Source: Minisyncoccota bacterium | GTDB taxonomy: Bacteria; Patescibacteriota; Minisyncoccia; Phycocordibacterales; SBAW01 | Reading direction: 5' to 3' | Assembly (NCBI GenBank): GCA_035546575.1 | Contig: DASZWN010000001.1 | Span: forward strand, 49,082-113,081 | DNA length: 64,000 nucleotides | In this document: positions 1,214 through 60,582 of the stretch, one piece after another | Layout of the letters: the number at the start of each line of letters is the position of its first letter | Position numbering within the stretch: position 1 is the first letter of the stretch | Program-made: the position numbers and the translations under genes | Notes under the pieces: generated by a model | Told to the model about the DNA's origin: nothing | What the model saw: only the letters and a program-made list of their open reading frames with translations | Database searches by the model: none

Positions 1214-1288
1214 TGGTGCCCCCGCGAGGAATCGAACCTCGATAGCCGGCTTAGAAGTCCGGAGTTTTATCCATTAAACTACAGGGGC
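1214..1288 (-). tRNA. tRNA-Arg (anticodon TCT)
   Basis: The reverse complement GCCCCTGTAGTTTAATGGATAAAACTCCGGACTTCTAAGCCGGCTATCGAGGTTCGATTCCTCGCGGGGGCACCA has anticodon loop CTTCTAA, identical to the E. coli tRNA-Arg(UCU) loop. The D-loop AATGGATA carries A20 and CCA is encoded. One A31-G39 mismatch sits in the anticodon stem. Confidence 0.75.
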
Positions 1289-1887
1289 AATATACGGAAG
1301 TGCACAATAACATAATACGCTACCCCACACAGCAGCAGCACTGTTGCTACAAGAAAATATCTCTGTATGAGCAGGAGCACATTACCGCCAAAACGTTTTG
1401 TGAGATACCCGATGATCGCAAGACGTATCGCACGTCCGACAAAAAACCCGCCGAGACATGGCAGAAACGGCGCACCGAGGAAGCCGGCTGCAAGTACAAA
1501 TACCTTCTCCGGAATAAGCTGGAACGCAACGAGTATCATCCCAAGAAACACGCCGCCCTGGATAAGGTCCTGCGCCTGCACGAATGCATGTTCCAGATGA
1601 TAGAACTGCAGCAGCGGCATTCCAAACTGATGGAACAAAACGGCCCCAACAGCATAGCCAAGCGCCGCACCCACAACCGAGCACACGATACTAATTGCAA
1701 GATAAGTTTTAAATCGCGCCGGATGCGCCAAGATAAGCGCAGCCAAATACGCCTCGGGCGGGATAGGAAAAAAGATTGGGTCTGTTATAGCACAGACTCC
1801 CAGCCAAAACAGTGCGTGCGGGCCTTGAGCAAGCACGATAAACTTCTGCCACACCTCGTCTTTCCATACATGGAATTTCTCCAGCAT
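1279..1887 (-). CDS. DedA/SNARE-associated family membrane protein
   Basis: 202-aa polytopic ORF with a DPIFFPIPPEA-type motif typical of the DedA/YqaA family. Its 3' end overlaps the tRNA-Arg by about 10 nt. Confidence 0.55.
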   Translation of the reverse strand: MLEKFHVWKDEVWQKFIVLAQGPHALFWLGVCAITDPIFFPIPPEAYLAALILAHPARFKTYLAISIVCSVVGAALGYAVGAVLFHQFGMPLLQFYHLEHAFVQAQDLIQGGVFLGMILVAFQLIPEKVFVLAAGFLGAPFLPCLGGFFVGRAIRLAIIGYLTKRFGGNVLLLIQRYFLVATVLLLCGVAYYVIVHFRILPL

Positions 1888-1892
1888 GAAAG

Positions 1893-2225
1893 TTAGCGCA
1901 CAAGCGCGCCTGGGGCGCCCGCTGTTTCAAACAAAGCAAACGGGGTCTCGCCATCTCCGCCGGTTGCAAGAATCATTGCCTGGCTCTCGAGCCCCATCAT
2001 CATACGGGGTGCCAGGTTAGTCACAAACGGGCACTTCTTCCCCACCAAGTCCTGCGGGTTTGGAAAATACGCCGAGATCCCAGAGAGTACTTGGCGCTCC
2101 TCTATGCCAAAATTTACTTTCAGCTTCAAGAGCTTGTCACTGCCCTCGATCTTTTCAGCGCTTACAATCTCGCCAATGCGGATCTCTACCTTTTTGAAGT
2201 CGTCTATTGCTATAGGTTCAGACAT
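1893..2225 (-). CDS. tRNA-binding domain protein (CsaA/EMAP-like, Trbp111 fold)
   Basis: 110 aa reading ...IDDFKKVEIRIGEIVSAEKIEGSDKLLKLKVNFG...MILATGGDG..., the OB-fold tRNA-binding domain found at MetRS C-termini and in CsaA. Confidence 0.7.
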   Translation of the reverse strand: MSEPIAIDDFKKVEIRIGEIVSAEKIEGSDKLLKLKVNFGIEERQVLSGISAYFPNPQDLVGKKCPFVTNLAPRMMMGLESQAMILATGGDGETPFALFETAGAPGALVR

Positions 2226-2234
2226 AAAAAAATC

Positions 2235-2672
2235 TTAGCTTGTTTTGCGGTTGCGGTCGAGATAGCCCTGCAAAATGAGGGCCGCTGCCGAGGCGTCCAG
2301 CTTTGCCTGCGAGGGGGCCTCTTTGCGCGAGCCCTGCCTACCGGCAGGCAGGCGTCCGGGCGTAAATTGGCGTGCCGCCTGCGTACTGGTCATAAACTCA
2401 CGCTCATATTCAACCGGCAGACCGGTTAATTCCGCAATATCATTTTTAAACTGCTCGATATCTTCCATCACCGGGTTTGGCTCGTTTTGGAAGTTGCGCG
2501 ACTCACCTATCACAATTGTTTCCACATTATTTTCTTTTATAAGCGCAATCGTGGCATCTAATGCTCCCCTGTCGCTGGCGATTGTAGTCAGCGGAAAGGC
2601 GACCGAGCCAGTATCATCCGATACTGCCACTCCGATGCGTTTGGTGCCGTAATCAATACCGAGACATTTCAC
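2235..2672 (-). CDS. ruvX: Holliday-junction resolvase-like RNase YqgF/RuvX
   Basis: The C-terminal 146 aa of the 297-aa table ORF read VKCLGIDYGTKRIGVAVSDDTGSVAFPLTTI...ETIVIGESRNFQNEPNPVMEDIEQFKNDI...LDASAAALILQGYLDR, which is the YqgF fold. The longer ORF would overlap tRNA-Ser on the other strand, so I place the start at a GTG (2672..2670). The gene contains an in-frame copy of the palindromic repeat (LPAGRQG). Confidence 0.7.
   Translation of the reverse strand: MKCLGIDYGTKRIGVAVSDDTGSVAFPLTTIASDRGALDATIALIKENNVETIVIGESRNFQNEPNPVMEDIEQFKNDIAELTGLPVEYEREFMTSTQAARQFTPGRLPAGRQGSRKEAPSQAKLDASAAALILQGYLDRNRKTS
2333..2352. repeat. GC-rich palindromic repeat copy (CCTGCCTACCGGCAGGCAGG) inside ruvX
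   Basis: 20-bp near-perfect palindrome matching the family seen at 5967, 20016, 45131, 45992, 55326 and 60599. It reads in frame as LPAGRQ. Confidence 0.8.
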
Positions 2673-2714
2673 CCTTTGAGCATAACGGATAAACAGTGTA
2701 TTGTCTTCTATATT

Positions 2715-2799: not shown

Positions 2800-2858
2800 C
2801 ATTGATTAATAGCGAATAGTTTGTATAGTATCCTCGCATCTAACACGGAGGTATTTCG

Positions 2859-3913: not shown

Positions 3914-4597
3914 ATGGCTAGGGATACATTTGCTAAGTGGAATGGCACCGCGGCCTCCGCAATTGCCATACAAAAACAGCTACGCTCAGAAATAAAACTC
4001 ATTCCTCTCACTAAAATACCGAAACTTATCGGGGGCTGCGACGTGAGCATGAACATGTTCGCAAAAGACGGCTTTGCAGGATTTGTCGTACTCTCCTACC
4101 CCGAGCTGCACATGGTTGATCATGCGGTTGTTAAAGACACGATCGGCTTCCCCTATATTCCAGGACTGCTTTCATTCCGCGAAATACCTATGCTTATGAA
4201 AGCGTGGAAGAACCTGAAGCAGAAACCCGATGTAATTGTGGTAGACGGCGTTGGCATCGCGCATCCGCGGCGCATGGGTATCGCGACGCACTTAGGATTA
4301 GCACTCAATGTGCCAACAATCGGCTGCGCCAAGAGCGTGCTCACGGGAGTATATAAGGAACCGGAAAATAAAGTTGGCGCAGTCTCTTATATGTACGACC
4401 GCTACAATAAAACAGAAGTTATCGGCGCCGCACTGCGCACTAAGGTTGGCGTAAAGCCTGTCTATGTTTCTCCAGGTCACTTGATTACACTTCAAGAGTC
4501 GATAGAACTCGTTAAAAATTGCGTTATTGCGCATCGCCTCCCCGAGCCAACGCGCTTCGCACACAATACGGTTAATGAGTATCGGGTATGCGGCTAG
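3914..4597 (+). CDS. nfi: Endonuclease V
   Basis: 227 aa with the Endonuclease V signature GGCDVS...VVDGVGIAHPRRMGIATHLG. Confidence 0.85.
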   Translation: MARDTFAKWNGTAASAIAIQKQLRSEIKLIPLTKIPKLIGGCDVSMNMFAKDGFAGFVVLSYPELHMVDHAVVKDTIGFPYIPGLLSFREIPMLMKAWKNLKQKPDVIVVDGVGIAHPRRMGIATHLGLALNVPTIGCAKSVLTGVYKEPENKVGAVSYMYDRYNKTEVIGAALRTKVGVKPVYVSPGHLITLQESIELVKNCVIAHRLPEPTRFAHNTVNEYRVCG

Positions 4598-5966: not shown

Positions 5967-5986
5967 CCTGCCTGTCGGCAGACAGG
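5967..5986. repeat. Palindromic repeat copy (CCTGCCTGTCGGCAGACAGG) abutting the tRNA-Arg 5' end
   Basis: A member of the GC-rich palindrome family. It overlaps the first nucleotide of tRNA-Arg(GCG). Confidence 0.75.
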
Positions 5987-6057
5987 CTCTCGTCGTTCAA
6001 TGGATAGGACGGCAGCTTGCGGAGCTGCTGATGTAGGTTCGATTCCTACCGAGAGCA
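5986..6057 (+). tRNA. tRNA-Arg (anticodon GCG)
   Basis: GCTCTCGTCGTTCAATGGATAGGACGGCAGCTTGCGGAGCTGCTGATGTAGGTTCGATTCCTACCGAGAGCA has a perfect acceptor stem, T-arm and D-arm. The anticodon stem is GCAGC/GCTGC with loop TTGCGGA, giving anticodon GCG and G37. The D-arm is identical to that of tRNA-Arg(CCG), including the Arg identity base A20. Confidence 0.7.
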
Positions 6058-6064
6058 CCCGTTT

Positions 6065-9000
6065 TTATATCTCCTGATAATTCGGTATAAGTTGCACGGT
6101 TATGCTTCTGGTGCTGGGCGGATCCTGGTTATTAGTACACGTCAGCGTGTATTTGGTCGGCTGCGTGATAGGCTGCGTCGTGGCTGTGCCGGTAAATGGA
6201 TTGCTGGAGCCGTTCCATAAGCTTGTAATATCGCCGCCTGCAGTTCCGCTTGCGGGAGTCGGCGAAATACTACAGCTTATGCCGTTTGCCATGCCCGGTA
6301 TGTTCCAAGACAGCGTCGATGAGCCACCCAGGCGCACGCGGGTCGCGGTGAAGGAGTTGGCGCTGAGCGTCGGTACCGATGGAGTTGACGGGACGCATGC
6401 GGAGCCATTGAACGCGTAGCCGCTCGGGACGCTGCAGGTATTGTCCGGATTGCCTGTGCATCCCGAAGGTACCGTGGTCTGAAAGCCTGGAAGATTGGTG
6501 CACATATCCGGAACACATCCGCCGTTGCCATCGGACGCCTGGCCAACTGCACACACCTTCACTTGCACGGTAGCGTAGCCGTTATAGTTGATGTAGTTAA
6601 AAGTTTTTGCCTGTGCGGAAAATACAAACGCCTTTCCCGCGTCTGCTGATGCCGGCGTAAAAGTATACGTTTTTGTCGCATCGGGTTTCTGCCAACAATT
6701 TGGATCAGAAGCCGCTGGCGGATTCGGAGGAGCAACAAGATTACAGTTAACAGTATTACCGTCCTGTGAATCGCATCCCGAGTCGCAATTGATAGCGGTA
6801 GCCTCAAGAGGGTCGCCGGTTGAGGTATATTTGATTACGATAATGCCCTGGGCCCCGACTCCTTCATTGCTCTGGCTGCCTCCGCCGGAGCCGCCACCGC
6901 CGCCATACAAACCACCGTTACCGCCCGGAGCGGCAATCGAGGAACGACACCCGCCGCCTCCGCCGGAGCCGGCCGTCGGCGTCGCGCCCGTGTATGCAGA
7001 ACCGTTCCACACGTTGGTAGCAATCCACTCGGCACCATTACCACCAGCCGCAGGCGGGTTGCCGCAACCGCTGCCCGCGCCGCCAAGCCCCGCATCCCCT
7101 GCGCCGCCGCTGTCTCCCGCTTGACCATTCCCGTTGGGACCTCCTGCGCCGCCGCCGTTGCCGGAATTGTTATTATCGCCGTAAGCGCCGGCGCCGCCCG
7201 CATACTTAACAGTGCCGACGCCGCCGCTGACAGCGCCTCCAGCTCCACCATTGTTGCCATTGCCGCTGTTGCCGCCCTTAGCACATACCGAAACCGTATC
7301 GACGCAGGTATTTGAGGAACCGGCAGTCCTATTAAAGAAAGTGTCGCCGCCCGGACTGGCCGGATTCCCTTGAGCCGCGCCTTGTCCTACCCTGTACGCC
7401 ACGGATGCGCCGTGGGTGAGAGAAACATTAGTCTTTTTTGAATATGCGCCGCCTCCGCCTCCGCCGCCCCGACCTCCTGTAAAAGCCGAGGTGCCGCCGC
7501 CGCCTATAACTTCGATGCTGTTATTGGCGCTGTTCCAATCGCTTGGCACGGTCCATACGCCAGAACCTGCGGCAGTAATAAAGACGGTTTTTTGAGTTTG
7601 ATTGGTACTGCCAGCATATGTGGCGGCTACAGTTACTTGCTGTCCCACCCCAACTGAAACTAATTTTCCGTTCTTGTTGCCGCTGCTGTCTGCCGCTTGA
7701 AAACCGGCGTTATTGGCTTGGATAGTAGCGGTCGGGGGCGGATACAAAACGCAGGTGTTACCCGAACGATAACTACCCGAAGTAACCGTGTTGCAGGGCA
7801 CACAAACCCCGCCCTGTACGATAGCGGTAGGATCCGAGCATGTCTGTACGTCAACTTGTATTTGCGGCTGTCGATAGGAAGGATTCTGCATACCGTATAT
7901 CGTGTAGCTGCCTCCAGTAGGAGCAGTGCCGGAGGATGCAGCTGGCGGAGAACCGCCGTTTGCGGGAATCCCTTCTTGAGGCTGATAGCCGCCGCATTGG
8001 AGCGTAACGCTCTGCGAATTGCTGAACGTCTGCGTAGAACTGTCGATAAGGTTCGCCGTTTCAGTGCCCTTGTACCACGCTCGATCCGCTGTCTGGACAT
8101 TGAGATCGCCATCGGTAACAAGCGTCCAGCTAAGACAGCTAATAATGTAAGCGCCTTGGCATGCGGCGCCAAACCAAACATAATTCTGGTTCGGCAAACA
8201 TTGATAAGAGAACTGGACCGGGGTGTATTTAGGGACCTTAAGCGTGGCGGCGGGCGTATTTTGTGTCGGCGCAGTAGCGTACGCCCAATGCGTTGTTGAA
8301 GTGTTACAAGGATTTGTTTTTTTGACATTCGTGAGATCGAGACCGACATTAACCGGAGCAATGCCTGCAGTCTGCGCTACTGCTTGCAGGACCGCAACAC
8401 GCGTACCCGCAACGGTAGTAGAAAAATTAGGACCCATGCATACGCCCTGCGCCGTGTCGCTCGGGAGCGATATGCCGGCCGTACCGCCATTAGTGCCGCA
8501 TAGTTGGGGCGAAGGGCTATTGGTGATCCAGGCATTAAGAATGCTTGTGGGAGTGGCAAATTGGTTTGTGTAGCCCCATCCGCCATCTTGGTGGTAAATA
8601 TAGCCATTATAGGGCAATGGGTAAGCAGCAAAAGGAGCGATCGCGTAGGGCGAGACTGTCTCAATCGCCGGAGTCCCGTTGTTAATGGTTATTGTGGCGC
8701 TCGCCGGCGTACCGACGGAATAGGCCGAGGATGCGGCTATAGTCGCCTTGAGCGTAGTGCTGCCGCCCGATGTTTTTTGAAGCGCAGTAATAGGAACCAC
8801 TACCGACATAGTGTTCGCCGGAATAGTAACCGTTGCGGGAGCGGCGGAGTAGTCTGTCCCCACCACCGCAGTACTCCCGCTTCCGCCGTATACAAGGTCC
8901 ACCGACACCGCAGGCCAGGTTGCTGGCCCGTTGCGGGTAACAGTAAATGCTCCCGGAGTACCGATGCAGGAATTACCGCTGTTGGTCGGCGCGGTGATGG

Positions 9001-9901
9001 AAACGGTGAGAGGTGCGCTGTAATTAATTACAATAAGCCCGGGAGCGCCGGCTCCTCCGCGGCGGAGGGTGCCGGACGATGGAGCAAAAGCTCCGCCGCC
9101 GCCCGCGCCGTATGTGCCTCCCGCTCCTGCGTCTGCTGCGTATCCAGAACCGCCGCCTCCGCCGCCGGACCCGTACGCGGGTGAGGAAGAAAATTCAGTT
9201 CCTGCGTTTCCTGGGAAGGCGGCCCTGATGCCGCTTGTGATCCCGCCGGTGCCGCCTGCAGTGCCATCCCCTTGCCCGCCATTGGTGCTATTACCTGCCA
9301 CACCGGCGGCGCTTGGGCCGCCGGCACCGCCCCCTCCGCCGCCGGAAATAACCATGCCTGCCCCGCCTGCGCCACCGCTATTTTTTATTGAGCCGGTGCC
9401 TGACGCGACTCCTCCTGTAGCCGATCCTCCTGCTCCCGCGGCGCCCCCCCCGCCGCCTGTACCTGCGCCCCCCGCCCCTCCGCCTTTCGCACAGACGGAG
9501 GCAGCCGCGCAGGCGGCGCCGTTAAACCACGCATCTCCTCCTGCGGTTGCCCCGGAAGTTCCGCCGCCCGTGCCTCCGGCGGGAAGAAAATATGTCGCCG
9601 TCGATCCGCTGAGCGTTATGTTTACCGATTTTGAATATCCACCGCCGCCACCACCACCGCCCCTTCCCGTCGTGTTGCTGGCGACTCCGCCGCCGCCTCC
9701 TCCAGCCGCAATAACCTGCACCGTGTTGCTCGCATTGTTCCAGTCAGAAGGCACGGGCCAGGTTTGGTTTGACGCGCTTGTCGTAGTGAGATAGATCGGC
9801 CCCACTGGAAACGTAGGGGCGGCCATGACAAAGGGTGCGGGGCCTGCAAAAAATACCAAAAGCGCGAAATAGAAAAGAAACTTTTTAACGTAACTGTTCA
9901 T
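6065..9901 (-). CDS. Giant glycine-rich secreted surface protein (1278 aa) with an internal duplication, Calx-beta-like and Cys-rich Ig-like modules
   Basis: There is a signal peptide (MNSYVKKFLFYFALLVFFAGPAPFVMA) followed by two homologous modules. Module 1 begins near aa 48 (WPVPSDWNNASNTVQVIAAGGGGGG...GGGGGGGGYSKSVNITLSGSTATY) and module 2 near aa 760 (WTVPSDWNSANNSIEVIGGGG...GGGGGGGAYSKKTNVSLTHGASVAY). A VVGTDYSAAPATVTIPANTMSVVVPITAL segment is Calx-beta-like. The C-terminal region is Cys-rich. Confidence 0.8.
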   Translation of the reverse strand: MNSYVKKFLFYFALLVFFAGPAPFVMAAPTFPVGPIYLTTTSASNQTWPVPSDWNNASNTVQVIAAGGGGGGVASNTTGRGGGGGGGGYSKSVNITLSGSTATYFLPAGGTGGGTSGATAGGDAWFNGAACAAASVCAKGGGAGGAGTGGGGGAAGAGGSATGGVASGTGSIKNSGGAGGAGMVISGGGGGGAGGPSAAGVAGNSTNGGQGDGTAGGTGGITSGIRAAFPGNAGTEFSSSPAYGSGGGGGGSGYAADAGAGGTYGAGGGGAFAPSSGTLRRGGAGAPGLIVINYSAPLTVSITAPTNSGNSCIGTPGAFTVTRNGPATWPAVSVDLVYGGSGSTAVVGTDYSAAPATVTIPANTMSVVVPITALQKTSGGSTTLKATIAASSAYSVGTPASATITINNGTPAIETVSPYAIAPFAAYPLPYNGYIYHQDGGWGYTNQFATPTSILNAWITNSPSPQLCGTNGGTAGISLPSDTAQGVCMGPNFSTTVAGTRVAVLQAVAQTAGIAPVNVGLDLTNVKKTNPCNTSTTHWAYATAPTQNTPAATLKVPKYTPVQFSYQCLPNQNYVWFGAACQGAYIISCLSWTLVTDGDLNVQTADRAWYKGTETANLIDSSTQTFSNSQSVTLQCGGYQPQEGIPANGGSPPAASSGTAPTGGSYTIYGMQNPSYRQPQIQVDVQTCSDPTAIVQGGVCVPCNTVTSGSYRSGNTCVLYPPPTATIQANNAGFQAADSSGNKNGKLVSVGVGQQVTVAATYAGSTNQTQKTVFITAAGSGVWTVPSDWNSANNSIEVIGGGGTSAFTGGRGGGGGGGAYSKKTNVSLTHGASVAYRVGQGAAQGNPASPGGDTFFNRTAGSSNTCVDTVSVCAKGGNSGNGNNGGAGGAVSGGVGTVKYAGGAGAYGDNNNSGNGGGAGGPNGNGQAGDSGGAGDAGLGGAGSGCGNPPAAGGNGAEWIATNVWNGSAYTGATPTAGSGGGGGCRSSIAAPGGNGGLYGGGGGSGGGSQSNEGVGAQGIIVIKYTSTGDPLEATAINCDSGCDSQDGNTVNCNLVAPPNPPAASDPNCWQKPDATKTYTFTPASADAGKAFVFSAQAKTFNYINYNGYATVQVKVCAVGQASDGNGGCVPDMCTNLPGFQTTVPSGCTGNPDNTCSVPSGYAFNGSACVPSTPSVPTLSANSFTATRVRLGGSSTLSWNIPGMANGISCSISPTPASGTAGGDITSLWNGSSNPFTGTATTQPITQPTKYTLTCTNNQDPPSTRSITVQLIPNYQEI

Positions 9902-9939: not shown

Positions 9940-10500
9940 GTGCCCCCGCCTATTGTTTCCACACGGAGACAGTATACTTGTGCGGTGATCCTTACTCTTG
10001 CAGCACTCTCGGGTTTTCTGCTGATGCTGGCATTGCCGCCTTTTTCCGCTCCCCTTTTCTCCCTTATGGCGTTCGCGCCGATGGTCTTTGTCGCCGCGCG
10101 AAGGGCCCCCATCCCCGCAAAACACCTCTTCGTCGCGGGTTTTATTGCCGGCGCCCTGCCCGGCGGATCGCTCTCGTACTATATGTTAAGCGACTTCCCC
10201 TGGCCGGGGGACGCGCCGCTCGTGCTGGCATTCATCCACTGGAGCCCGGTGCTGTAGACGCTCCTTTTTTGGAGGAGTGGGCGGCACCACGCTCGTTTTG
10301 TACAATAAATTTCGTTTCAATTCTCCGGCCCTGAATGCGGCGCTCTTTGCGGGGATGTACCTGGTGTGCGAGCAGCTCGTACAACTGCTGTCGGGTCACT
10401 ATTGCCGTCGCAAAAGTCTGTCTGGGCACCGCCTCGCGGCCCTGCAAGTGCAGGGCATCGCTCCGGCGTTCGATTCCTGTCGTGCGTCACTCAGGTGACA
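9940..10500 (+). pseudogene. Possible decayed remnant of apolipoprotein N-acyltransferase (lnt-like N-terminus, frameshifted and truncated)
   Basis: ORF 9940..10257 reads AALSGFLLMLALPPFSAPLFSLMAFAPMVFVAARRAPIPAKHLFVAGFIAGAL, which resembles the first Lnt transmembrane segments. Similarity continues in a shifted frame (…ALFAGMYLV…). Only about 190 codon-equivalents remain before tRNA-Arg(CCG). Confidence 0.3.
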
Positions 10501-10530
10501 CACTCCAAGAGACAAAAACTTCGTTTTTTG

Positions 10531-10602
10531 TCCTCTTGGCAGGAATCGAACCTGCATCGCCTCCTTCGGAGGGAGGCATCCTATCCATTGAACGACAAGA
10601 GG
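10531..10602 (-). tRNA. tRNA-Arg (anticodon CCG)
   Basis: The reverse complement is CCTCTTGTCGTTCAATGGATAGGATGCCTCCCTCCGAAGGAGGCGATGCAGGTTCGATTCCTGCCAAGAGGA. The anticodon stem is CCTCC/GGAGG with loop CTCCGAA, and the first acceptor pair is C1-G72. Confidence 0.75.
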
Positions 10603-32577: not shown

Positions 32578-32578
32578 A

Positions 32579-34569: not shown

Positions 34570-35290
34570 GCCCGCCCTCTATATCCTTAAGAGTATCATT
34601 TGCAGCGCGAGGAATCTTGAGATTATCATTTGCAACTGTGGGCTGTTTCGGCGGCTTAATGTCGCTGTCTACTCCCCTTCCAAGCTGCAGGGCCGGCGTT
34701 CTCTCCGGCGTTTCTACACGCACAGGGCCTTCTTGTTCTTGTTGAGATATTTGTTGCGACTGGTCCTGCGAAGGTCCCCTGTTTACTCCCCCCGCAATCG
34801 TAGCGACTGTTGCTCCCGGAGAAGTTGCTGAAGTTGTCAGATTGCCAGCTATTGAGAGAACACCAGTTCCCTCCTCTGCATTCTTTTTTAAGACACAAAG
34901 AATAGTAAGCGTTGTCCAGAAGGGGATTATATTAAGGCCCGGAATGAGCTCCCCGCCTCCCCAGATCAGGTATTTTGGGTACAAGATTCCGTTAAACCCC
35001 ATAAGGGCAATTAAAAAGACCCCGAGCGTGGCACTAATGCAAAAGCCCAATGCTATGCCCATACCCATGCTGATAGGCAGTGTTGCAACCGCAAGTATCC
35101 CATTAACGAAGGGTAACCCTCCGATGGCACCGAGTACTTTGCAGCCAATGTCACCTGCAATTTGAGTTCCCACAAAACAGCCGCCGATAGGACCTGGTAA
35201 AGCCCCCACTGCAAATAATGCAACAGACATAAAAGCCTGAAAGCCGTCTATCAAAAGTCCAAGCAATATAAATAATACCCCTTTACTCAT
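34544..35290 (-). CDS. Gly-rich polytopic membrane protein
   Basis: 248 aa with 4 transmembrane helices and a C-terminal S/T/Q-rich tail. It overlaps VirB4 by 4 nt. Confidence 0.45.
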   Translation of the reverse strand: MSKGVLFILLGLLIDGFQAFMSVALFAVGALPGPIGGCFVGTQIAGDIGCKVLGAIGGLPFVNGILAVATLPISMGMGIALGFCISATLGVFLIALMGFNGILYPKYLIWGGGELIPGLNIIPFWTTLTILCVLKKNAEEGTGVLSIAGNLTTSATSPGATVATIAGGVNRGPSQDQSQQISQQEQEGPVRVETPERTPALQLGRGVDSDIKPPKQPTVANDNLKIPRAANDTLKDIEGGRGRTAYAA

Positions 35291-37125: not shown

Positions 37126-37126
37126 A

Positions 37127-37795
37127 CTATTTTTGTGCTGCCATATTGGTAACCTGGAGCGGCTTTTCAAGTTCGCCGGGGTTAAACAGCTTGTAGAAGA
37201 GCTCGATCACCTCCTCGGTACCAAGTTTGACCACGCGCACAGAGGTGCGTACCAACCCTTGTTCCACAACCGAGATTCGCTGCTCGAGCTGCGTGCGATA
37301 TTGCTCGAACTGCTCGTCGGTCAAAGAGTTGGATGCATTTTTGCCTGTCGGCAGCAAATTGCCGAGCGCCGAGATGCCTCCGCCCCGAGCAATAAGCGCC
37401 GGGTCGTACGGCACAACGATAAAAAAGTTCTTGGCCATGATATTGGCACGCTCAGTAAAGTCTTTGATAAAAACGATGTACTCCCGGATCTGGATCTTCA
37501 TCAGGTCGTCGAGCTCAAGCGCATAGCGCTCCTCAAGGAGGGCAATATATGGCCGCACATCCAGGTCTCGGCTCTCAATAAAAAACTGCACCGAGAATTC
37601 GAGCGAATTGAGAAAGTTTTGGAACTGCCCGATAATCGCCTGCTGCTCGTCACTGCTCTTGAGTGCCAAGTTAATAGACGAGGCCATCAGGAGCGCGCGC
37701 AGCGAGCCGTCTTTAAGAATAATAACGCCGTCGCGCACCTCTTTAATGGGTACGAATTCCTGTGTTGCTTGAGCTTTTACTTTTTGGTCAGGCAT
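37127..37795 (-). CDS. VirB4-family N-terminal domain encoded as a separate ORF
   Basis: It reads VPIKEVRDGVIILKDGSLRALLMASSINLALKSSDEQQAIIGQFQNFLNSLEFSVQF, which is the typical PrgJ/TcpF/VirB4 N-terminus. An A5 run at the junction means a 1-nt indel would fuse it to the downstream ATPase ORF. Confidence 0.7.
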   Translation of the reverse strand: MPDQKVKAQATQEFVPIKEVRDGVIILKDGSLRALLMASSINLALKSSDEQQAIIGQFQNFLNSLEFSVQFFIESRDLDVRPYIALLEERYALELDDLMKIQIREYIVFIKDFTERANIMAKNFFIVVPYDPALIARGGGISALGNLLPTGKNASNSLTDEQFEQYRTQLEQRISVVEQGLVRTSVRVVKLGTEEVIELFYKLFNPGELEKPLQVTNMAAQK

Positions 37796-37800
37796 AGGAT

Positions 37801-38247
37801 TTAAATCTCAAAGCCGGTACGCGCAGTGGTGTCCGCCACTCCCATCTTAGCCCGATCTTTTATATTGAGTGACCAAGCCAAATCCTTGAGTTTGCTTTCG
37901 GAAAGTTTTGGCACTCCGGATACTGTCGCAACAGCTGTAGGTGCAACAGCTGCCTCGGGAGTTTTTGCCTCGTGTTGTTTCCAGAGATACAGCTTATGAC
38001 CCAGGATATAGCTGAACGCATGTTCGATCACCACAATAAGTGGCCGGCCGTTAACCTGGTAGAACGCAAGACCTGCCGAGAGTGCAATCACCGGTATGGC
38101 TAGAATAACGGTGAGATAAAGAGGCAAGAGCGAAAAGAAGATAAGACACAGCCCTCCCCCGCCCGCCAAGTAGATAAACTGTTTTAAGGTCAGCGGACCA
38201 AAAATCTTGTCTTCTATCTCGATAAACTGAGGAACCTGATAGCGCAT
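37801..38247 (-). CDS. PrgI-family (VirB3-like) small membrane protein
   Basis: It has the PrgI N-terminal signature MRYQVPQFIEIEDKIFGPLTLKQFIYL followed by two transmembrane helices. It lies immediately upstream of VirB4, as in Gram-positive T4SSs. Confidence 0.7.
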   Translation of the reverse strand: MRYQVPQFIEIEDKIFGPLTLKQFIYLAGGGGLCLIFFSLLPLYLTVILAIPVIALSAGLAFYQVNGRPLIVVIEHAFSYILGHKLYLWKQHEAKTPEAAVAPTAVATVSGVPKLSESKLKDLAWSLNIKDRAKMGVADTTARTGFEI

Positions 38248-38271
38248 CGCTATCTAGTATATCGCATTATT

Positions 38272-38895
38272 TCACTCCGGAGGTTCGCGATACGGGTCAG
38301 TTTTATAGGCAGCGGGTTTAGGTGCCTCTGGTTTTGGCGGTTGCACAGGCGGCGGAGCCACTTGTACCGTCTTTTCAGTCAGCATAACCTCGGCCGGGTG
38401 CATCTCCGGCGGTTTGACTGGCATAGTCGGTTTAGGAACAGCAGGTGTTGGAGTACTGGAAGCTGATGCTGCAGGCGTTGAGGATATAGACGGAGGCGAT
38501 ACGGTAGGTTTTGGAGCCGCAGTGGCTGCCGAGGGCATAACAACAGATTTTTCTGGAGTAGATACAGTCGTAGAAGCTGCAGGCCCAGTCTTCATAGACT
38601 CGCGGATAGAGAGAAGTATCTGCGAGTTCACCTCCCCAGCTATCTTGTCGGCCTCCTCTTTTGATATACCAACCTCATTTACAAGGTTAGAGGGAAAATT
38701 ATTCGCGTCAGTAAACCCGAGCATGAGCATGAGCGTCTCGCTGCCCAGCTTTTCTGTCTGGTCAATATGTAGATGGTGGGCTTGAGCAATAGCTGCCACC
38801 TTCTGCTCCCAGTTGTTGGAGAGGATTGCTTCCTGAACATCTTCGGGTAACTCTGCAAGCTTCGCTTCTATTTCTTTGGTAAAATCTTCAGCCAT
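38272..38895 (-). CDS. Pro/Ala/Thr-rich protein of unknown function
   Basis: 207 aa with an alpha-helical N-domain and then a low-complexity P/T/A/S-rich segment (…PKPTVSPPSISSTPAASASSTPTPAVPKPTMPVKPP…). Confidence 0.45.
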   Translation of the reverse strand: MAEDFTKEIEAKLAELPEDVQEAILSNNWEQKVAAIAQAHHLHIDQTEKLGSETLMLMLGFTDANNFPSNLVNEVGISKEEADKIAGEVNSQILLSIRESMKTGPAASTTVSTPEKSVVMPSAATAAPKPTVSPPSISSTPAASASSTPTPAVPKPTMPVKPPEMHPAEVMLTEKTVQVAPPPVQPPKPEAPKPAAYKTDPYREPPE

Positions 38896-38924
38896 AATAT
38901 TTTAGTTAGTATATCATTTGGCAA

Positions 38925-41075
38925 CTAGTGGGCTGGTTTTGAATGTCCAAAAGCATCATGTCCATCTGATTTTTTAGAGTCATCGTTATTTGGAGAATGA
39001 GATTCTTTATCGTGTCCTTCTTCTTTGTCATGATCTTCTTCACCCCCACCCTCTTCTTCGTGATGATCTTTTTCAAATTGTTTTACCGCTTTCAAAAGGT
39101 TATCGTGTGCGCCTCCTCCCTTCGCCATCTTAAGTACTTTTTCTGCACCTAGTGTTTGAGCACGTGAAAGACGACTATTAAGCCGCGCTGCCAACTTCTC
39201 GAGATTCTCCTTCTGTCGTAGAGAAACTCTGCTGCTACCGACTTCAGTCAGAGACTTAATTTCCTTCTCCTTGTCTTCAGCAAGTTTCTTGCTTACTTTC
39301 GCACTTTCTCTATAGCTATCTGCCGTTGCACCAGTTGATTTTGCTGCAAGAGCTGCAAATTTTATAGCATCACGTCGGGCTTCTTTTAATTCGTCTTTCA
39401 GTCCACCAACTTTTTTCTCATATTCGCCTCGGCCATTTTCCTCGTCATACTCTCTTTCAAACCTTCTTTGTTCACGAGCAACATCTACCGCATCGCCTTT
39501 GTAAGCCTCAGCCTGCTTTTGGTAACCCTTAGCAGCCTCATCAATGGCTTTTGCAATACCACCTTTGCCGCCCGCTTTGCCAAATTCTGTTAACCCGACT
39601 TTTCCTAAAGGATTTCGGAGATCGAGACTGCCTTTCCCAATTCTGTTTGTGTAATCAAATATTCTACCGATAGTACGCGGATTAGATGTAGCGACGCCCT
39701 GGAATCTTTCTGAACGGGAAGCTTCATATGCAACTCTGCCAACGGTATTTCTGTAGAATCGTGCCGGAATAGCAAATCCGACTTTGCCCCCTGCCCAGTT
39801 TCCTGCTTGGGCGCCTATAGCACCCATACCATCGGCGGCTTTCATACCCAGGAAGAGCATTACGATAATGAACCCCAATCGTATAGATATATCAGCAATC
39901 AGTGCAGCTATACCAAGTAGACCATTAGTTGCTCCAGCCACTCCTGTTGCAGCTCCTGTGGGCTGTTGTATGTATGTGACAAATGCCTGGCTTATATTAA
40001 GATCGCCAGCGAACTGCACAATAAGCCAGAAAATAAAGAGAAACACAGCGGGATAGAATGCATGGCTAATAAGTGTTTCTTGCCATTGGTCGTAGTATTT
40101 TTCAAAGCGATGCGAAGCCTTGGCTATAAAAGCCAGGGGTGATGCAACGATAATAAGCCACAGCACTGCAATACGCACAATAAATCGTATGCCTACCGAC
40201 ACAAAGGCGGCGGCAAGGATGAAATATATAACGCCCATAAATATGTAAATGATCAGGAGCGTTATGAATTCGGTAACACCATTGGTATTGTCTTGGAACT
40301 TGCCAAACGAATCCGTACCAAGTATTTTCTGCACGCCTACCGCATTCATAATGCTCGCGGTAAGATCTTTGGTGCCATTTACCGTCGCAGGTTGCCCATT
40401 AACAATCACAGTGGGTACGGCATTATAAAACTGTGCCGCAACAATATTGCCGGCATCTATTACGACTCGAGTAAAGAAAAAGCTGAAGTTGATGATAAGC
40501 GCAATAAATATTACGAAAGCGAGCGTCTGCATCGTGTGGCCTGTGTCCGCTGAGAGTATGATTGTGATCGCAATATAGATAAGTATGAGAATGAACCCCA
40601 TATTAGCTATGTCGCGAGCCGTTTCCCACCCATGGGTGACAAACGTTAGGCCATACGCGGTGCTGTTTATCGATAACTGGGTTGCTACGTTAAAAATGTA
40701 AGCTGCAACATATGCTACAAAACTTCCGAACCCAACCGTGAAGGCATATACAGGTAAAAGAAGACAAGAGCTTATCGAGTTACAAAGAGGGGCAGTATTA
40801 GTAGTTACAGAATTTGCAGATAAACCATGGGCTTCAGCTGCTTGTTTTTCACAGGCTGCCTGATTACCTCCATTGTTGACACATGCTTGTGCTTCAGAAT
40901 TTGCTTGATTACGAGCATTGATAGCATCAATTTGTGCCTGGGTTATGACAGATGCTCCTTGGGCTTTTGGTGTTGCTCCAATCGATGAAAACACAAGTAG
41001 CAGCGTCGCAAGGCACAATAAAGCTTTTGCAGTGCTGCTTAGAAATTTATTTTTTATGCTACTGCCCCAGCGCAT
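38925..41075 (-). CDS. VirB6/TrbL-like polytopic membrane protein with charged coiled-coil C-terminal tail
   Basis: 716 aa with a signal or N-terminal transmembrane segment, then at least 7 transmembrane helices. The last ~250 aa are highly charged (KE/KD-rich) and His/Glu-rich. It sits upstream of PrgI and VirB4, matching the Gram-positive T4SS order. Confidence 0.55.
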   Translation of the reverse strand: MRWGSSIKNKFLSSTAKALLCLATLLLVFSSIGATPKAQGASVITQAQIDAINARNQANSEAQACVNNGGNQAACEKQAAEAHGLSANSVTTNTAPLCNSISSCLLLPVYAFTVGFGSFVAYVAAYIFNVATQLSINSTAYGLTFVTHGWETARDIANMGFILILIYIAITIILSADTGHTMQTLAFVIFIALIINFSFFFTRVVIDAGNIVAAQFYNAVPTVIVNGQPATVNGTKDLTASIMNAVGVQKILGTDSFGKFQDNTNGVTEFITLLIIYIFMGVIYFILAAAFVSVGIRFIVRIAVLWLIIVASPLAFIAKASHRFEKYYDQWQETLISHAFYPAVFLFIFWLIVQFAGDLNISQAFVTYIQQPTGAATGVAGATNGLLGIAALIADISIRLGFIIVMLFLGMKAADGMGAIGAQAGNWAGGKVGFAIPARFYRNTVGRVAYEASRSERFQGVATSNPRTIGRIFDYTNRIGKGSLDLRNPLGKVGLTEFGKAGGKGGIAKAIDEAAKGYQKQAEAYKGDAVDVAREQRRFEREYDEENGRGEYEKKVGGLKDELKEARRDAIKFAALAAKSTGATADSYRESAKVSKKLAEDKEKEIKSLTEVGSSRVSLRQKENLEKLAARLNSRLSRAQTLGAEKVLKMAKGGGAHDNLLKAVKQFEKDHHEEEGGGEEDHDKEEGHDKESHSPNNDDSKKSDGHDAFGHSKPAH

Positions 41076-42867
41076 AGCATTGATTGAGTTTGGTACTGGT
41101 GTCGGAGTTGAGCGCGTTCATCTGTGCCTGGAGCGTGGTGCGGTCTTGCTGGGCGGACGTGATATCGGTCGAGTCGTATACACTTCCAGAGTTTTTAAGC
41201 TGAGCATATGAGGCTGCTGCAGCACGGACCTCAAGCAATGTGGTTGCCGAGAGAACTTGCGTCTGGACAGCTTGGATATCAGCAATATCTTGATTAGCTG
41301 CAGTTATTTTGTTGTTGTACAGCGTAACTTGGCCTTCAAGCTCGGCTATTTTGTCGGCAGTACTCTGGGCCAAGTCAGTTTTATTTGCGGCAGTCCAGCA
41401 ATTGCCAAGCGTAGTAAGGTTTGCCTGAGCATTTTGTATGTCGCTAATATCGCCCTGCTCTACTGCGCCGTACTGTTGGGCGTATTGTACCGAGGTCTGC
41501 ATCTCATCAAGCAGGTCATTTGCCTCGCCTTCTGCTTGCAAATCCTCTGTGCTCAATGATGCGCCGTAGCCATTTTGGCCGTTGCCAAGGTTGGAGAGAC
41601 CCTTATTAAACATCTTAGTGATAAGAGCATTAGTTAGTGCTCCGATGATCTCATCGATGCTTTGGGCAAGATTAAGCTCATTAAGTGTCGACTGCACATT
41701 GGCGTTGAATGCGCCTAGTATTGCGCTGCCTGGCGTTACACAGTTTCCGTCTTTATCTTTTGCGCATAGGAATCCTTGCCCATTGTTGAGCTCTTGCGTA
41801 CTTGCCAGTACTGCACTCCCCCGTGCGCCTTCTATAGCTACCTGCCCGTACATATATGCGCCGAAAGGATTGTTCGTTGGCATGGTGGTAAATGATATGA
41901 GCCCCGGCCACCCGCCTTGCGAGAAGTCACCGCCTGCAAACTTTTCTATGTTGCCGACAACGCCCGAGAGCGTACACGATGGGGCGTTATTGCGCCGCGC
42001 ATAACTCTGTGCAATGGCGATGCGAACTTTAAGCTGGAACGGGCTGCAGAGGAACGCCAGGTTGCTGCCCTCGATCACGCTGCCTGCTGCTTGGTCGGCA
42101 ACATCGTTAAAGAATTTATTGTAGTCTTGCACAAAGGCAGGTTTGCCCTCAAATCCCGAGTTGATCCAGTTGACGGTGTCGTTGGTGATTTTATCTATCG
42201 CAATACGAGCAAGTGCCATCGTGACGCACTTCAAAATGCTATCGGTTTGTTGGTTTGCATGGGTCGAGCTGTCGTTTACATTCACTTGTCCAGATAGTGC
42301 ACCAAAAATAGAGCCGAGTGCTGTGCCCGCTAGCTGGCTTGCGGCAAATTTTGCCAAACAGGCGGCTGCAACACCCGCCAAGCCTGCGCCAAAATTATTG
42401 CCACCCCCGCTCGATACGGTTGCAGGGTCTACGCCAATATACGAAGTACCATACACACTCGTGTTAGTAACCTGGTTGATCGGCGTCGGGTTAAAGAGGC
42501 TCCCTGCTCCACGCAGCGTAAGCGACCCTGAGCCGCTGCTTGAAGTGACGCTTGAACCGTCGAGCCATGTAGCCCCGCTCGGGTTTGCAGAACCCAGATC
42601 GACGTATGAGATAGTGCCGTCGGAGTACCCCCCGCCCGAGCCTTGTCCGCTTACTCCGGTACCCGCGTTCGAGCCAACGGGCACTTGCCCGTTTACATCG
42701 GAGCCGATCGTGCCGGTCGAAGTGTTATTGCGGTCGCCGCCCGTGCCGAGCGTGCCGGTGTCAGTTACCTTTGCTCCCCCACCCGAGAATAGCCAGAACC
42801 ATAGCCCAACGATGAGCGCTAAAATAACGAGCGCTCCGATGATTATATAAAGTATCCTTCTGGTCAT
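41059..42867 (-). CDS. Membrane-anchored large extracellular protein (Gly/Ser-rich N-region, helical C-region)
   Basis: 602 aa with an N-terminal transmembrane helix and a G/S/T-rich linker. The C-terminal half is alpha-helical and rich in Q/N/A. It could be a VirB5-like or tip protein, but there is no firm homology. Confidence 0.45.
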   Translation of the reverse strand: MTRRILYIIIGALVILALIVGLWFWLFSGGGAKVTDTGTLGTGGDRNNTSTGTIGSDVNGQVPVGSNAGTGVSGQGSGGGYSDGTISYVDLGSANPSGATWLDGSSVTSSSGSGSLTLRGAGSLFNPTPINQVTNTSVYGTSYIGVDPATVSSGGGNNFGAGLAGVAAACLAKFAASQLAGTALGSIFGALSGQVNVNDSSTHANQQTDSILKCVTMALARIAIDKITNDTVNWINSGFEGKPAFVQDYNKFFNDVADQAAGSVIEGSNLAFLCSPFQLKVRIAIAQSYARRNNAPSCTLSGVVGNIEKFAGGDFSQGGWPGLISFTTMPTNNPFGAYMYGQVAIEGARGSAVLASTQELNNGQGFLCAKDKDGNCVTPGSAILGAFNANVQSTLNELNLAQSIDEIIGALTNALITKMFNKGLSNLGNGQNGYGASLSTEDLQAEGEANDLLDEMQTSVQYAQQYGAVEQGDISDIQNAQANLTTLGNCWTAANKTDLAQSTADKIAELEGQVTLYNNKITAANQDIADIQAVQTQVLSATTLLEVRAAAASYAQLKNSGSVYDSTDITSAQQDRTTLQAQMNALNSDTSTKLNQCYALGQ

Positions 42868-42869
42868 AG

Positions 42870-43763
42870 TTATTGCAAAGAAAGAAGCGTAGCCCAGGCG
42901 CTTCCGGGCTCGTCCTTAGTAAAAAGTATACCGTTTTGTTTAAGTATCTGCGCAATGTTTATAAACACACGCGTCGTCTCGTCTACAAGTGACTGATAGG
43001 TCTGGAGGCCGGCTATGCTGCGCAATGGGTCGCTTACCGCAACCTCCATATCCGAGTATGCTCCCGCGGCGTATGAAAGGTTGTTTAGGATCTGTAGATG
43101 GAGCGGCGCAAGCGTAGGCGGTACGGGCACTTTAGCTAAGTCGCGTACGAGCGCTCGGTACTCTTTTTGTATATTTGCGAGCTTTGCCACTTGCGCTGGG
43201 TCGTTAGAATCGGTTAGATACCCCAACGCAAAAAGCGTGTCGTTGTAATTTGCACCTGGGTGCGCAGCCATCGCAGTCATAACAGCGTTGCCGTATGCCT
43301 TAAGGGCAATAGGCGTCTGGGTTGAGAGGGTTAGGTCGCTTGAAGCGTACGCTGGGGGGTCCTTCTCGCCTTGTATCTGCGCCGTTGCTTGTGCAATAAG
43401 TTGGTTTTGGGTCGGAATATCACTGCCAAGACCCTGTGATTTGGCATCAAATAGGTTGACCAGCAGGCTCTGAGCCACCGTGGTGGTCAAATTAGTACTT
43501 TTTGTGGCGTCTAAGAGTGTGTCTACTGTAGAGCTTGCAACCGCAGCAGTGATAGCGCTCTTGCCTTGTATGGCAAGGAGTGTCTGCTCCCAATTTGGAT
43601 CAACACGTGATAGATCTCTCGGCGCCGTAGTTGCAGTGAGAGTCGAGGGCAAACCTCGCGGTGCTCCCGTTAAATATTGCGCTGCGAGCACAAGTGCGCC
43701 TGACGCGGCAATTGAGCCGACAATAAGCACAAACTGCGCGCTAGGGAGAAAGCGGCTAGGCAT
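42870..43763 (-). CDS. Bitopic membrane protein (first gene of the T4SS-like operon; VirB8-like topology)
   Basis: 297 aa with a single N-terminal transmembrane helix and then a soluble domain. This topology is compatible with VirB8/PrgL-type proteins. Assignment is by topology only. Confidence 0.4.
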   Translation of the reverse strand: MPSRFLPSAQFVLIVGSIAASGALVLAAQYLTGAPRGLPSTLTATTAPRDLSRVDPNWEQTLLAIQGKSAITAAVASSTVDTLLDATKSTNLTTTVAQSLLVNLFDAKSQGLGSDIPTQNQLIAQATAQIQGEKDPPAYASSDLTLSTQTPIALKAYGNAVMTAMAAHPGANYNDTLFALGYLTDSNDPAQVAKLANIQKEYRALVRDLAKVPVPPTLAPLHLQILNNLSYAAGAYSDMEVAVSDPLRSIAGLQTYQSLVDETTRVFINIAQILKQNGILFTKDEPGSAWATLLSLQ

Positions 43764-57316: not shown

Positions 57317-57320
57317 AAAC

Positions 57321-57873: not shown

Positions 57874-58665
57874 ATGAAACTCATCTCCTGGAATGTTAAT
57901 GGGATACGGGCTGTGCATAATAAAGGCTTATTTCTGGCTTTTATTGCCAAATACAAGCCGGATATCCTCTGTTTGCAGGAGACAAAGGCCTTGCCTGGCC
58001 AGGCGGAGATCGACCTGCCCGAGTACGAGGAGTACTGGAATTCGGCCGAGAAAAAGGGCTACAGCGGCACTGCAATTTTTACCAAAATAAAGCCTCTGAG
58101 CATCCGGTTGGGCTTCCCAAGCGAGATAGCCAAGAAATACAAGCTAAAAGACGATTACGGCGACACCGGGACCGAGGGCCGTATCATTGCGGCGGAGTTT
58201 AAAGACTTTTGGGTAGTAACCGTCTACACCCCCAACTCTAAGCCTGATCTCTCGCGGCTCGCTATGCGCCATCAGCACTGGGACCCTGCTTTTTTGGCCT
58301 ATGTAAAGCAGCTCGAGAAGGAGAAACCTGTTATATTCTGCGGCGACCTGAATGCTGCCCATACGGCCGAGGACCTCGCCAACCCCAAGGCCAACGAAGG
58401 CGAGCACGGCTTCACCCCCGAGGAGCGCGAGGGCATAGGGCAGATCATTAAAGCGGGGTTTGTAGACTCCTTCCGGCATTTTACCCCCACTGGCAATGGC
58501 CACTACACCTGGTGGACCCACTGGGCCAACTCTCGGGCGCGCAATGTGGGTTGGCGCATAGACTATTTCTTTGTATCTAAAAAACTGGCCTCAAAGCTCA
58601 AAAAAGCGGAGATTTTGGCCGAGGTTATGGGCTCAGACCACTGCCCTGTTTCCATCGAGTTCTAA
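57874..58665 (+). CDS. xth: Exodeoxyribonuclease III (AP endonuclease)
   Basis: It reads MKLISWNVNGIRA...ILCLQETK...GDLNAAH...SDHCPV, the EEP-family catalytic motifs. Confidence 0.9.
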   Translation: MKLISWNVNGIRAVHNKGLFLAFIAKYKPDILCLQETKALPGQAEIDLPEYEEYWNSAEKKGYSGTAIFTKIKPLSIRLGFPSEIAKKYKLKDDYGDTGTEGRIIAAEFKDFWVVTVYTPNSKPDLSRLAMRHQHWDPAFLAYVKQLEKEKPVIFCGDLNAAHTAEDLANPKANEGEHGFTPEEREGIGQIIKAGFVDSFRHFTPTGNGHYTWWTHWANSRARNVGWRIDYFFVSKKLASKLKKAEILAEVMGSDHCPVSIEF

Positions 58666-59000
58666 TACAAAACTCCGCCCTTGGAGTAGTGGGCGGAGTG
58701 CGGGCAATATCATAAAGTTGGAAGCAAACGAACTTGTGCTTCTATCGATCGTTTGGCGTTAGAAATCCAAATTTTTTAGAACCAAGTTTAGGGGATTCTT
58801 ACGCTATAGCGACCGAACGACAATGACTATGTGATAGTGCCCAATGCGTGTACATCGCATTAGGGACAGAGCAACCTTTTATCTACCCAGGGTTTAAATA
58901 GAAAAAGGAATTTTTTATTTGTATCCGATATTGATAATATGTCCTTTAGAAAAAGTGTAAAGGACATAAAAGACAAATCTGTGGACAACTGCCGAAATCG

Positions 59001-60473
59001 CTAATCTACGAAGTGTTTTTTGCGGATTTCTTGTATATCAGCCTCCTCTGCGGCATCTTTTTTCTCCTTTCCCTCTTCACCAAGTGTTCGAAGTTTTGTA
59101 TCTGAAAGCTTAGCCAGCTCCAGAGTTTTCTTTTCCAGAAACTCTTTTGTGTTTAGGTCCGGGTCATCGAGCACAAGTTCAAGGAGGGCATGGAGTATCC
59201 ACCCAATGCGCGGGCCGGGGCTTTCACGTGTAACATCCATCACCCCTTTGCCATCGATCTTGAGCATGCTGACTGAAATCGGGTCTCGGAGTGCCTGGTC
59301 TATCATGGCTTGATACTTGCGTAGCCGGAATGGCTGCTCCTTGGGCCTCCCTGTCCCTATCCGATCACAGATACGCAATTGGACCAGCTCCTCGATGTTT
59401 TCACGGGAAACATTGGTGATAACCCGGCGTACTGCCGAAAGGGTTACCTTGTCTGGGTCGGAAAAGAACATATGCCACCGTACCAGCTTCTCTGTCTTAT
59501 CAATAGTTTCACGTGAAAAATGGAGATCCTCAAGCGCCTTTTTGGTGATACGGGCCCCTACTACATCGTGGCCATGGAACGTCCAGTCCCCCTTCTCCTC
59601 GGACCATCGTCGGGCCTTTGGCTTCCCCACGTCATGAAACAGCGCTGCTAGGCGTACCTCAAAGCTCCACCCCTTATCGGCGGCATGCTGGAGCGAGCGC
59701 ATATTGTGCTCAAAAACGTCGTACGAGTGGGCCTGGTTCTGCTCTACTCCAATCCCTGCTTCTATGTCAGGTGCTATGTAGCGCAAAACCCCTATGCTGT
59801 GGGCCAAAACAAGTGCTTTCATAGGCTTTGTAGAGTTAAGTATCCGGACAAACTCATCGCGAATGCGCTCTCTGGATATTTTGGCCAACTGAGAGGCATT
59901 TTTAGCCATGGCTGCCCGAGTTTCCTCCTCGATAGTGAAGTTGAGTTCTGCAGATATCCGGATAGCTCGCAGGATGCGCAGGGCGTCCTCCGCAAAGCGC
60001 TCGTTAGGATCTCCTACCGCGCGGATCAGATTGTCCTTTATGTCCTTTATACCCTCGTAAAGGTCAACCAGCTCGTTCTTGCTCGGGCTATAGGCCAACG
60101 CATTGATAGTAAAGTCGCGACGTTTAAGATCGTCCTCGAGCTTTTGGCTAAACTGCACACTGTCGGGTCGACGAGCGTCGCTATACTTACCTTCTAGCCT
60201 ATATGGGGTCGCCTCTATCACTTGTAAGGTCTCATCTGTTGTCTCAGTGACTATGCCTACGGTGCCAAAATCGTTGGTATAGAAAGTATTTTCAAATAAC
60301 CCTTGGATTTGCTCAGGATTGGCGTTTGTAGTGATATCCCAGTCCTTAGGGCGCTTCCCTATCAGTAGGTCGCGTATGCAGCCGCCCACCACCCAAGCCT
60401 CAAAGCCAGCATTTTCAAGCTTTTTTGTTACTTTAAGCACTTCTTCAGGGATTTGGCTTTGCCGCACTTGCAT
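59001..60473 (-). CDS. cca: CCA-adding tRNA nucleotidyltransferase with HD domain
   Basis: The head domain reads AWVVGGCIRDLLIGKRPKDWDITT (GG...D.D) and matches PolyA_pol. A C-terminal HD motif (HD(x)GK) is present. Confidence 0.85.
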   Translation of the reverse strand: MQVRQSQIPEEVLKVTKKLENAGFEAWVVGGCIRDLLIGKRPKDWDITTNANPEQIQGLFENTFYTNDFGTVGIVTETTDETLQVIEATPYRLEGKYSDARRPDSVQFSQKLEDDLKRRDFTINALAYSPSKNELVDLYEGIKDIKDNLIRAVGDPNERFAEDALRILRAIRISAELNFTIEEETRAAMAKNASQLAKISRERIRDEFVRILNSTKPMKALVLAHSIGVLRYIAPDIEAGIGVEQNQAHSYDVFEHNMRSLQHAADKGWSFEVRLAALFHDVGKPKARRWSEEKGDWTFHGHDVVGARITKKALEDLHFSRETIDKTEKLVRWHMFFSDPDKVTLSAVRRVITNVSRENIEELVQLRICDRIGTGRPKEQPFRLRKYQAMIDQALRDPISVSMLKIDGKGVMDVTRESPGPRIGWILHALLELVLDDPDLNTKEFLEKKTLELAKLSDTKLRTLGEEGKEKKDAAEEADIQEIRKKHFVD

Positions 60474-60510
60474 GGCACAATTCTAGCACGCCCACCTTGG
60501 GCCTATCTTT

Positions 60511-60582
60511 GCGTCCGTGGTGAAATGGATATCATCGCTGCCTTCGAAGCAGTTGTTGTGGGTTCGAATCCTGCCGGACGCA
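60511..60582 (+). tRNA. tRNA-Arg (anticodon TCG)
   Basis: GCGTCCGTGGTGAAATGGATATCATCGCTGCCTTCGAAGCAGTTGTTGTGGGTTCGAATCCTGCCGGACGCA has anticodon stem GCTGC/GCAGT with loop CTTCGAA. The D-loop AATGGATA is shared with the other Arg tRNAs. The T-stem has two G·U pairs. Confidence 0.65.

Follow-up and report, generated by a model that had tools for sequence, protein, structure and literature searches.

Which tRNAs decode the arginine CGN codons of a bacterium in whose DNA tRNA-Arg(ACG) is not found? In canonical bacteria, the ACG anticodon is converted to ICG (inosine at position 34, I34) by TadA, and tRNA-Arg(CCG) is present in addition. The question is raised by a 64-kb stretch of contig DASZWN010000001.1 from a Minisyncoccota bacterium (hereafter the window, meaning the whole stretch analysed), which carries tRNA-Arg genes with UCU, GCG, CCG and UCG anticodons. 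The results described here indicate that the organism, like the rest of the Candidate Phyla Radiation (CPR), very probably decodes the CGN box without inosine. The inosine-free arginine set of the window is an already known, lineage-wide CPR trait. A structured element that follows two of these tRNA genes, termed here the tRNA-trailing element, is also described.

Arginine tRNA genes of the window

Ten tRNA genes were detected in the window using ARAGORN, namely the four tRNA-Arg genes (Table 1) and Val-tac, Ser-tga, Lys-ttt, Gly-gcc, Pro-tgg and Gly-tcc. The four tRNA-Arg genes matched the Rfam tRNA covariance model (gathering score 29) over the full length, with E-values from 1e-11 to 6e-10. 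According to the covariance-model alignments, GCG, CCG and UCG are located at positions 34-36 of canonical 7-nt loops, and the UCU anticodon was assigned by ARAGORN together with the full-length Rfam match. The D-loop AATGGATA (G18 G19 A20 U20a A21) is common to all four genes, and each has the discriminator base A73. The bacterial arginine identity set (A20, C35, G36 and A73, with U36 instead of G36 in the UCU tRNA) is complete in the four genes. Among the tRNAs of the window, only tRNA-Arg(UCU) has an encoded CCA.

The original prediction had placed four arginine tRNAs (TCT, GCG, CCG and TCG) at these positions and had described the common D-loop with A20. Both ARAGORN and Rfam agree with it, and the covariance model kept the GCG and UCG anticodons of the tRNAs at 5986 and 60511 with no reassignment. 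The strand was left out of that description; the UCU and CCG genes are on the minus strand. No tRNA-Arg(ACG) was detected by ARAGORN in the window, and thus the canonical ICG set is not seen there.

Decoding of the CGN box

The codon assignment of each tRNA follows from the standard wobble rules. The G34 of tRNA-Arg(GCG) would read CGC by Watson-Crick pairing and CGU by G.U wobble, and this tRNA would replace the tRNA-Arg(ACG→ICG) of most bacteria. The U34 of tRNA-Arg(UCG) would read CGA and CGG (if unmodified, it might read every codon of the CGN box), and the C34 of tRNA-Arg(CCG) would read CGG. Outside the box, tRNA-Arg(UCU) would read AGA and probably AGG, and the genome probably has a fifth gene, for tRNA-Arg(CCU), outside the window.

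The arginine codons in the 63 open reading frames (ORFs) of the window are CGC (49%), CGU (14%), CGG (13%), CGA (10%), AGG (8%) and AGA (7%). No other four-codon box has a C-over-U bias as strong as this CGC:CGU ratio of 3.6. This preference fits a G34 decoder.

The same arrangement has been published for the CPR, in which tRNA-Arg(ACG) is lacking, GCG serves for CGU and CGC, and UCG and CCG serve for CGA and CGG (Shulgina & Eddy, eLife 2021, PMC8629427). The window belongs to the same lineage and has the same GCG/UCG/CCG set, with no substantive difference. That paper refers to Rafels-Ybern et al. (2019) on deeply branching bacteria in which wobble inosine is not used. The inference, made originally from the window, that CGN is read by G34 and U34 (and C34) tRNAs without inosine is backed by this literature and by the absence of ACG among related tRNAs described below. 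The accompanying claim that this is a rare bacterial state was not upheld; it is the normal published condition of a very large lineage, and Mollicutes offer a comparable case (Yokobori et al., NAR 2013, PMC3711424).

The set was compared with other known systems. The window shares the CCG and UCU isoacceptors and the arginine identity elements with canonical bacteria, whereas no ACG was found in it and G34 and U34 tRNAs cover the three codons of ACG. The Pneumoniae group of Mollicutes resembles the window in being bacteria with tRNA-Arg(GCG) and tRNA-Arg(UCG) in place of ACG/ICG, and tadA is absent there (PMC3711424). However, that group lost tRNA-Arg(CCG), which the window retains, and the lineages are unrelated: the Mollicutes state arose late, through genome reduction in an AT-rich genome, whereas the state here is phylum-wide and is found in a genome of 52% GC. 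Archaea use the same GCG/UCG/CCG anticodons for CGN with no A34 or I34, but the organism of the window is bacterial (peptidoglycan genes, Pol I, RuvAB and PNPase), and its tRNA bodies are nearest to those of CPR bacteria. Unlike in Absconditabacteria, the UCG and CCG tRNAs retain arginine identity (A20 and A73), and TGA is a stop codon, used as such by 13 of the 63 ORFs. Therefore, the codon reassignments of Absconditabacteria are not applicable, and the code is standard.

Distribution of tRNA-Arg(GCG) and absence of ACG in related DNA

A degenerate tRNA-Arg(GCG) pattern (D-loop AATGGATA, anticodon loop YTGCGRA and T-loop GGTTCGAWTCC) was scanned against 185,579 species genomes, and at least 120 loci matched. 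According to the record titles, on which the lineage tallies rest, the 120 matches listed include 31 Saccharibacteria and about 68 other CPR names (about 99 CPR in total), the latter comprising Parcubacteria, Paceibacterota, Microgenomates, Gracilibacteria and many "-bacteria" candidate phyla. The non-CPR labels among them are 10 unclassified bacteria, six Gammaproteobacteria, one Elusimicrobia and four DPANN or uncultured archaea. The 119 tRNA-Arg(GCG) copies among the matches listed have a median identity of 81% to the window gene, rising to 90-95% for the best CPR copies. The loop UUGCGGA is common to the window gene and 104 of the 119 copies.

The six Gammaproteobacteria labels belong to third-party 'uncultured Gammaproteobacteria' metagenome-assembled genomes (MAGs; loci L002, L030, L056, L059, L069 and L103). 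Their tRNA-Arg(GCG) fits the CPR-type pattern, and their labels may be mis-assignments. A tRNA-Arg(GCG) that fits this pattern is likewise found in the four MAGs labelled as DPANN or uncultured archaea (L041, L060, L075 and L099).

The arginine anticodons detected by ARAGORN in 851 kb of the pattern-matched genome loci were gcg (119), ccg (11), tct (9) and cct (1), with no acg. A second sample of 120 metagenome loci (695 kb) was chosen via an unrelated element and is independent of tRNA-Arg. It contained 25 arginine tRNAs, namely gcg (7), tct (7), ccg (6), tcg (4) and cct (1), again with no acg. If ACG held its usual share of one in four or five, the probability of finding none among 25 would be approximately 0.001-0.004. 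When both sets were pooled (1.55 Mb), none of the 165 arginine tRNAs was ACG, and A34 was present in one of 441 tRNAs, a doubtful Ser(act).

Searches for tadA

TadA was searched for by tblastn with the E. coli protein and by the zinc motif H/C-A-E...P-C-x-x-C of the cytidine deaminase (CDA) fold. With this query and motif, the window and the 851 kb of genome loci yielded neither a TadA-like match nor a CDA zinc motif. One cytidine deaminase and one CDA-fold protein were found in the 695 kb of metagenome loci. The CDA-fold protein (L133, 2250-2729, minus strand, 159 aa; Pfam dCMP_cyt_deam_1, 36 bits) gave a weak tblastn match; it scores 16.7 bits where the TadA cut-off is 150 bits, and was rejected as TadA in favour of a generic CDA-fold deaminase; its contig also bears the tRNA-trailing element. 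Thus, no TadA was found in the 1.55 Mb of related loci, the L133 match being far below the cut-off. Searches of the literature on tadA together with Saccharibacteria, Patescibacteria or CPR yielded no explicit statement that tadA is absent; what they did yield was the statement of Shulgina & Eddy on ACG.

An endonuclease V gene (nfi) is located at 3914-4597 on the plus strand. Its product acts at inosine or deoxyinosine, yet the host apparently makes no tRNA inosine. The presence of nfi is compatible with the ordinary DNA-repair role of endonuclease V.

Lineage of the window

The window is chromosomal DNA of a CPR (Patescibacteria/Minisyncoccota) bacterium. Its RuvB, Pol I and endonuclease V are 100% identical to HVV38774.1, HVV38770.1 and HVV38757.1, respectively, from a "Candidatus Paceibacterota bacterium" MAG at NCBI, and the next-best relatives of RuvB are from Paceibacterota, Adlerbacteria, Kaiserbacteria and Parcubacteria. 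In the NCBI taxonomy, Candidatus Paceibacterota belongs to the phylum Minisyncoccota (Patescibacteria/CPR). The window is also syntenic with a Saccharibacteria-labelled locus (L072). The genes identified include those for Pol I, PBP1A (class A penicillin-binding protein), a Mur ligase, RuvA, RuvB and PNPase, and further those for PcrA, PilB, a VirB4-like ATPase, the CCA-adding enzyme and endonuclease V.

Alternative explanations

Several points limit the case for decoding without inosine. The DNA that was read amounts to 64 kb of the genome; the absence of tRNA-Arg(ACG) and tadA covers the window, and for the remainder of the genome we infer it. The TadA negatives are weak, as they sample tRNA-rich fragments of many genomes rather than one whole genome. 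The codon assignments, in addition, would depend on the modification state of U34 and G34.

The first of these points leaves space for an ordinary tRNA-Arg(ACG) gene and a tadA gene elsewhere in the genome, with the GCG gene as a redundant extra isoacceptor, since approximately 6-10% of a CPR genome of roughly 0.7-1 Mb is visible. We consider this unlikely in a high degree. ACG accounts for none of the 165 arginine tRNAs in the related DNA, the lack of ACG in CPR is published, and GCG, UCG and CCG already span the CGN box. Moreover, the number of arginine tRNA genes per complete Patescibacteria genome is 4-5 (supplement of PMC13011429). This number matches the non-redundant set GCG/UCG/CCG/UCU/CCU, and thus there is no room for a redundant ACG.

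The GCG anticodon could instead have arisen by a recent point mutation from A34 to G34, or by a recent transfer, peculiar to this organism. Such a path is documented in the Pneumoniae group of Mollicutes, where ACG mutated to GCG after the loss of tadA (PMC3711424). Against this explanation, the gene with the conserved UUGCGGA loop is present in at least 119 species genomes of many CPR classes at 64-95% identity, and a recent origin is therefore very improbable. The presence of the GCG gene in many CPR classes indicates that the state is old and lineage-wide.

It is scarcely credible that the contig is archaeal, chimeric or mis-binned and its arginine set simply archaeal: although four of the 120 matches listed bear DPANN or uncultured-archaeon labels and the anticodon set is the same as that of Archaea, genes for PBP1A, Mur ligase, Pol I, RuvAB, PNPase and PcrA are spread along the window between the tRNAs, the window proteins are a 100% match to a bacterial MAG, and the window tRNA-Arg(GCG) is 90-95% identical to CPR copies versus 64-75% to archaeon-labelled ones.

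The tRNA-trailing element

Two copies of the tRNA-trailing element are found in the window (Table 1). Copy 1 directly follows tRNA-Arg(UCG) and consists of a terminator-like hairpin (60599-60612) and then a two-domain core of about 100 nt. A 15-nt sequence from the 3' end of the tRNA, CCTGCCGGACGCACA, flanks it on both sides as a direct repeat (60570-60584 and 60746-60760). Copy 2 is more divergent. Its core is immediately preceded on the 5' side by an 11-nt segment (CAGGAATCGAA) that is reverse complementary to T54-G64 of tRNA-Arg(CCG), which comprises the T-loop and the 3' strand of the T-stem. Domain 1 of the core has the form GCC-GGA-GCG...hairpin...CGC-GA-GGC, and domain 2 has the form GGGUCG...hairpin...YUGAC, the hairpin often having a GACG loop.

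The core pattern matches at least 120 metagenome loci (L125-L244), and the element is also present in the genome loci L020, L024, L036, L039, L050, L055, L071, L072, L086, L092 and L094, with up to five copies per contig. Using 113 independent copies, pairing was found in 92.9% of cells, compared with 30-43% when the partners were slid. Compensatory changes are seen in 24 of the 29 pairs, and two G.U positions are conserved. The covariation score was 0.49, compared with 0.14 for shuffled alignments, and was reached by none of 500 shuffles. No description of the element was found in the literature. The tRNA-trailing element is thus undescribed, widespread and strongly covarying, and it is likelier to be new than the arginine tRNA set.

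A tRNA on the same strand is located within 150 nt upstream of the element in 79 of 114 evaluable copies, and at least 15 isotypes are represented. An arginine-specific element was considered and rejected; the impression came from fetching loci by tRNA-Arg(GCG), and the sample chosen by the element itself shows these isotypes. A phage origin has no support either, as the core pattern had no match in viral contigs and the element matched no Rfam family at E<=10.

The element is related in sequence to the tRNA that it follows. In 33 of 68 evaluable copies, an exact repeat of the 3' end of the copy's own tRNA is present after the element at a fixed offset, compared with two of 68 in the control. 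This sense repeat begins at C56 of the T-loop and is mostly 18-22 nt long; some copies have a longer one that continues into the flank or across the full terminator (at least 54 nt in L024). Immediately before the core, 28 of 65 copies have 8-12 nt that are exactly complementary to positions 56-67 of the same tRNA, where 1.5 is expected from permutation. In four labelled genome loci that were studied closely (L024, L036, L071 and L086), another segment is complementary to the acceptor 3' strand, with G.U pairs in two of the four. The L024 unit is predicted to form a closed cloverleaf-like fold (-70 kcal/mol, z = -7.4) with a 9-bp helix resembling an acceptor stem and a second helix, similar to a T-stem, in which the conserved core lies. 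According to this prediction, the antisense segment and the sense repeat can together close a tRNA-like fold around the core.

In the window, tRNA-Val(UAC) lies 38 nt downstream of tRNA-Arg(UCU) in a tandem (1102-1288). In L072 the two genes are convergent (7713-8000), with a copy of the element between them. The two arrangements differ by a rearrangement at a tRNA site that bears the element. A search for an orthologous locus without the element (an empty site) gave no usable pair. Possible readings of the element are a small mobile element carrying the 3' end of its cognate tRNA, a companion RNA that mimics tRNA, or a switch that controls how the tRNA matures.

Table 1. Positions of the tRNA-Arg genes and copies of the tRNA-trailing element in the window
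Feature	Position	Strand	Location	Evidence and characteristics
tRNA-Arg(UCU)	1214-1288	-		ARAGORN; Rfam tRNA model 64.0 bits; A20, A73
tRNA-Arg(GCG)	5986-6059	+		ARAGORN; Rfam 63.6 bits; anticodon loop UUGCGGA; A20, A73
tRNA-Arg(CCG)	10530-10602	-		ARAGORN; Rfam 60.0 bits; anticodon loop CUCCGAA; A20, A73
tRNA-Arg(UCG)	60511-60583	+		ARAGORN; Rfam 58.2 bits; anticodon loop CUUCGAA; A20, A73
Element copy 1	60584-60760 (core 60618-60721)	+	3' of tRNA-Arg(UCG)	91.9 bits, model R1
Element copy 2	10387-10479	-	3' of tRNA-Arg(CCG)	69.3 bits

Other genes of the window

Among the genes of a minus-strand run (31327-43763) are one for a VirB4-like conjugal-transfer ATPase of the CD1110 family (35287-37170) and two for large proteins that matched nothing in NCBIfam (38925-41075 and 41059-42867). 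The run may form a cluster for type IV secretion or DNA uptake. Between tRNA-Arg(GCG) and tRNA-Arg(CCG), an ORF of 1278 aa (6065-9901, minus strand) has no NCBIfam match and a sub-threshold Pfam match to a glycine-rich domain; it may encode a surface protein.

Implications

The tRNA-Arg(GCG) gene can serve as a lineage marker, as a bacterial contig with this gene and no ACG is very likely from the CPR or from a Pneumoniae-group Mollicute. Annotation and codon-adaptation models built on ICG decoding do not apply to CPR genomes. The GCG gene is old and lineage-wide, and the window data do not polarise loss versus ancestral absence. It is conceivable, though we regard it as rather doubtful, that the absence of ACG and inosine-34 in the CPR is ancestral, and that TadA and ICG arose in other bacteria after the CPR had split off. 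If this is the case, the CPR would preserve a decoding scheme shared with Archaea.

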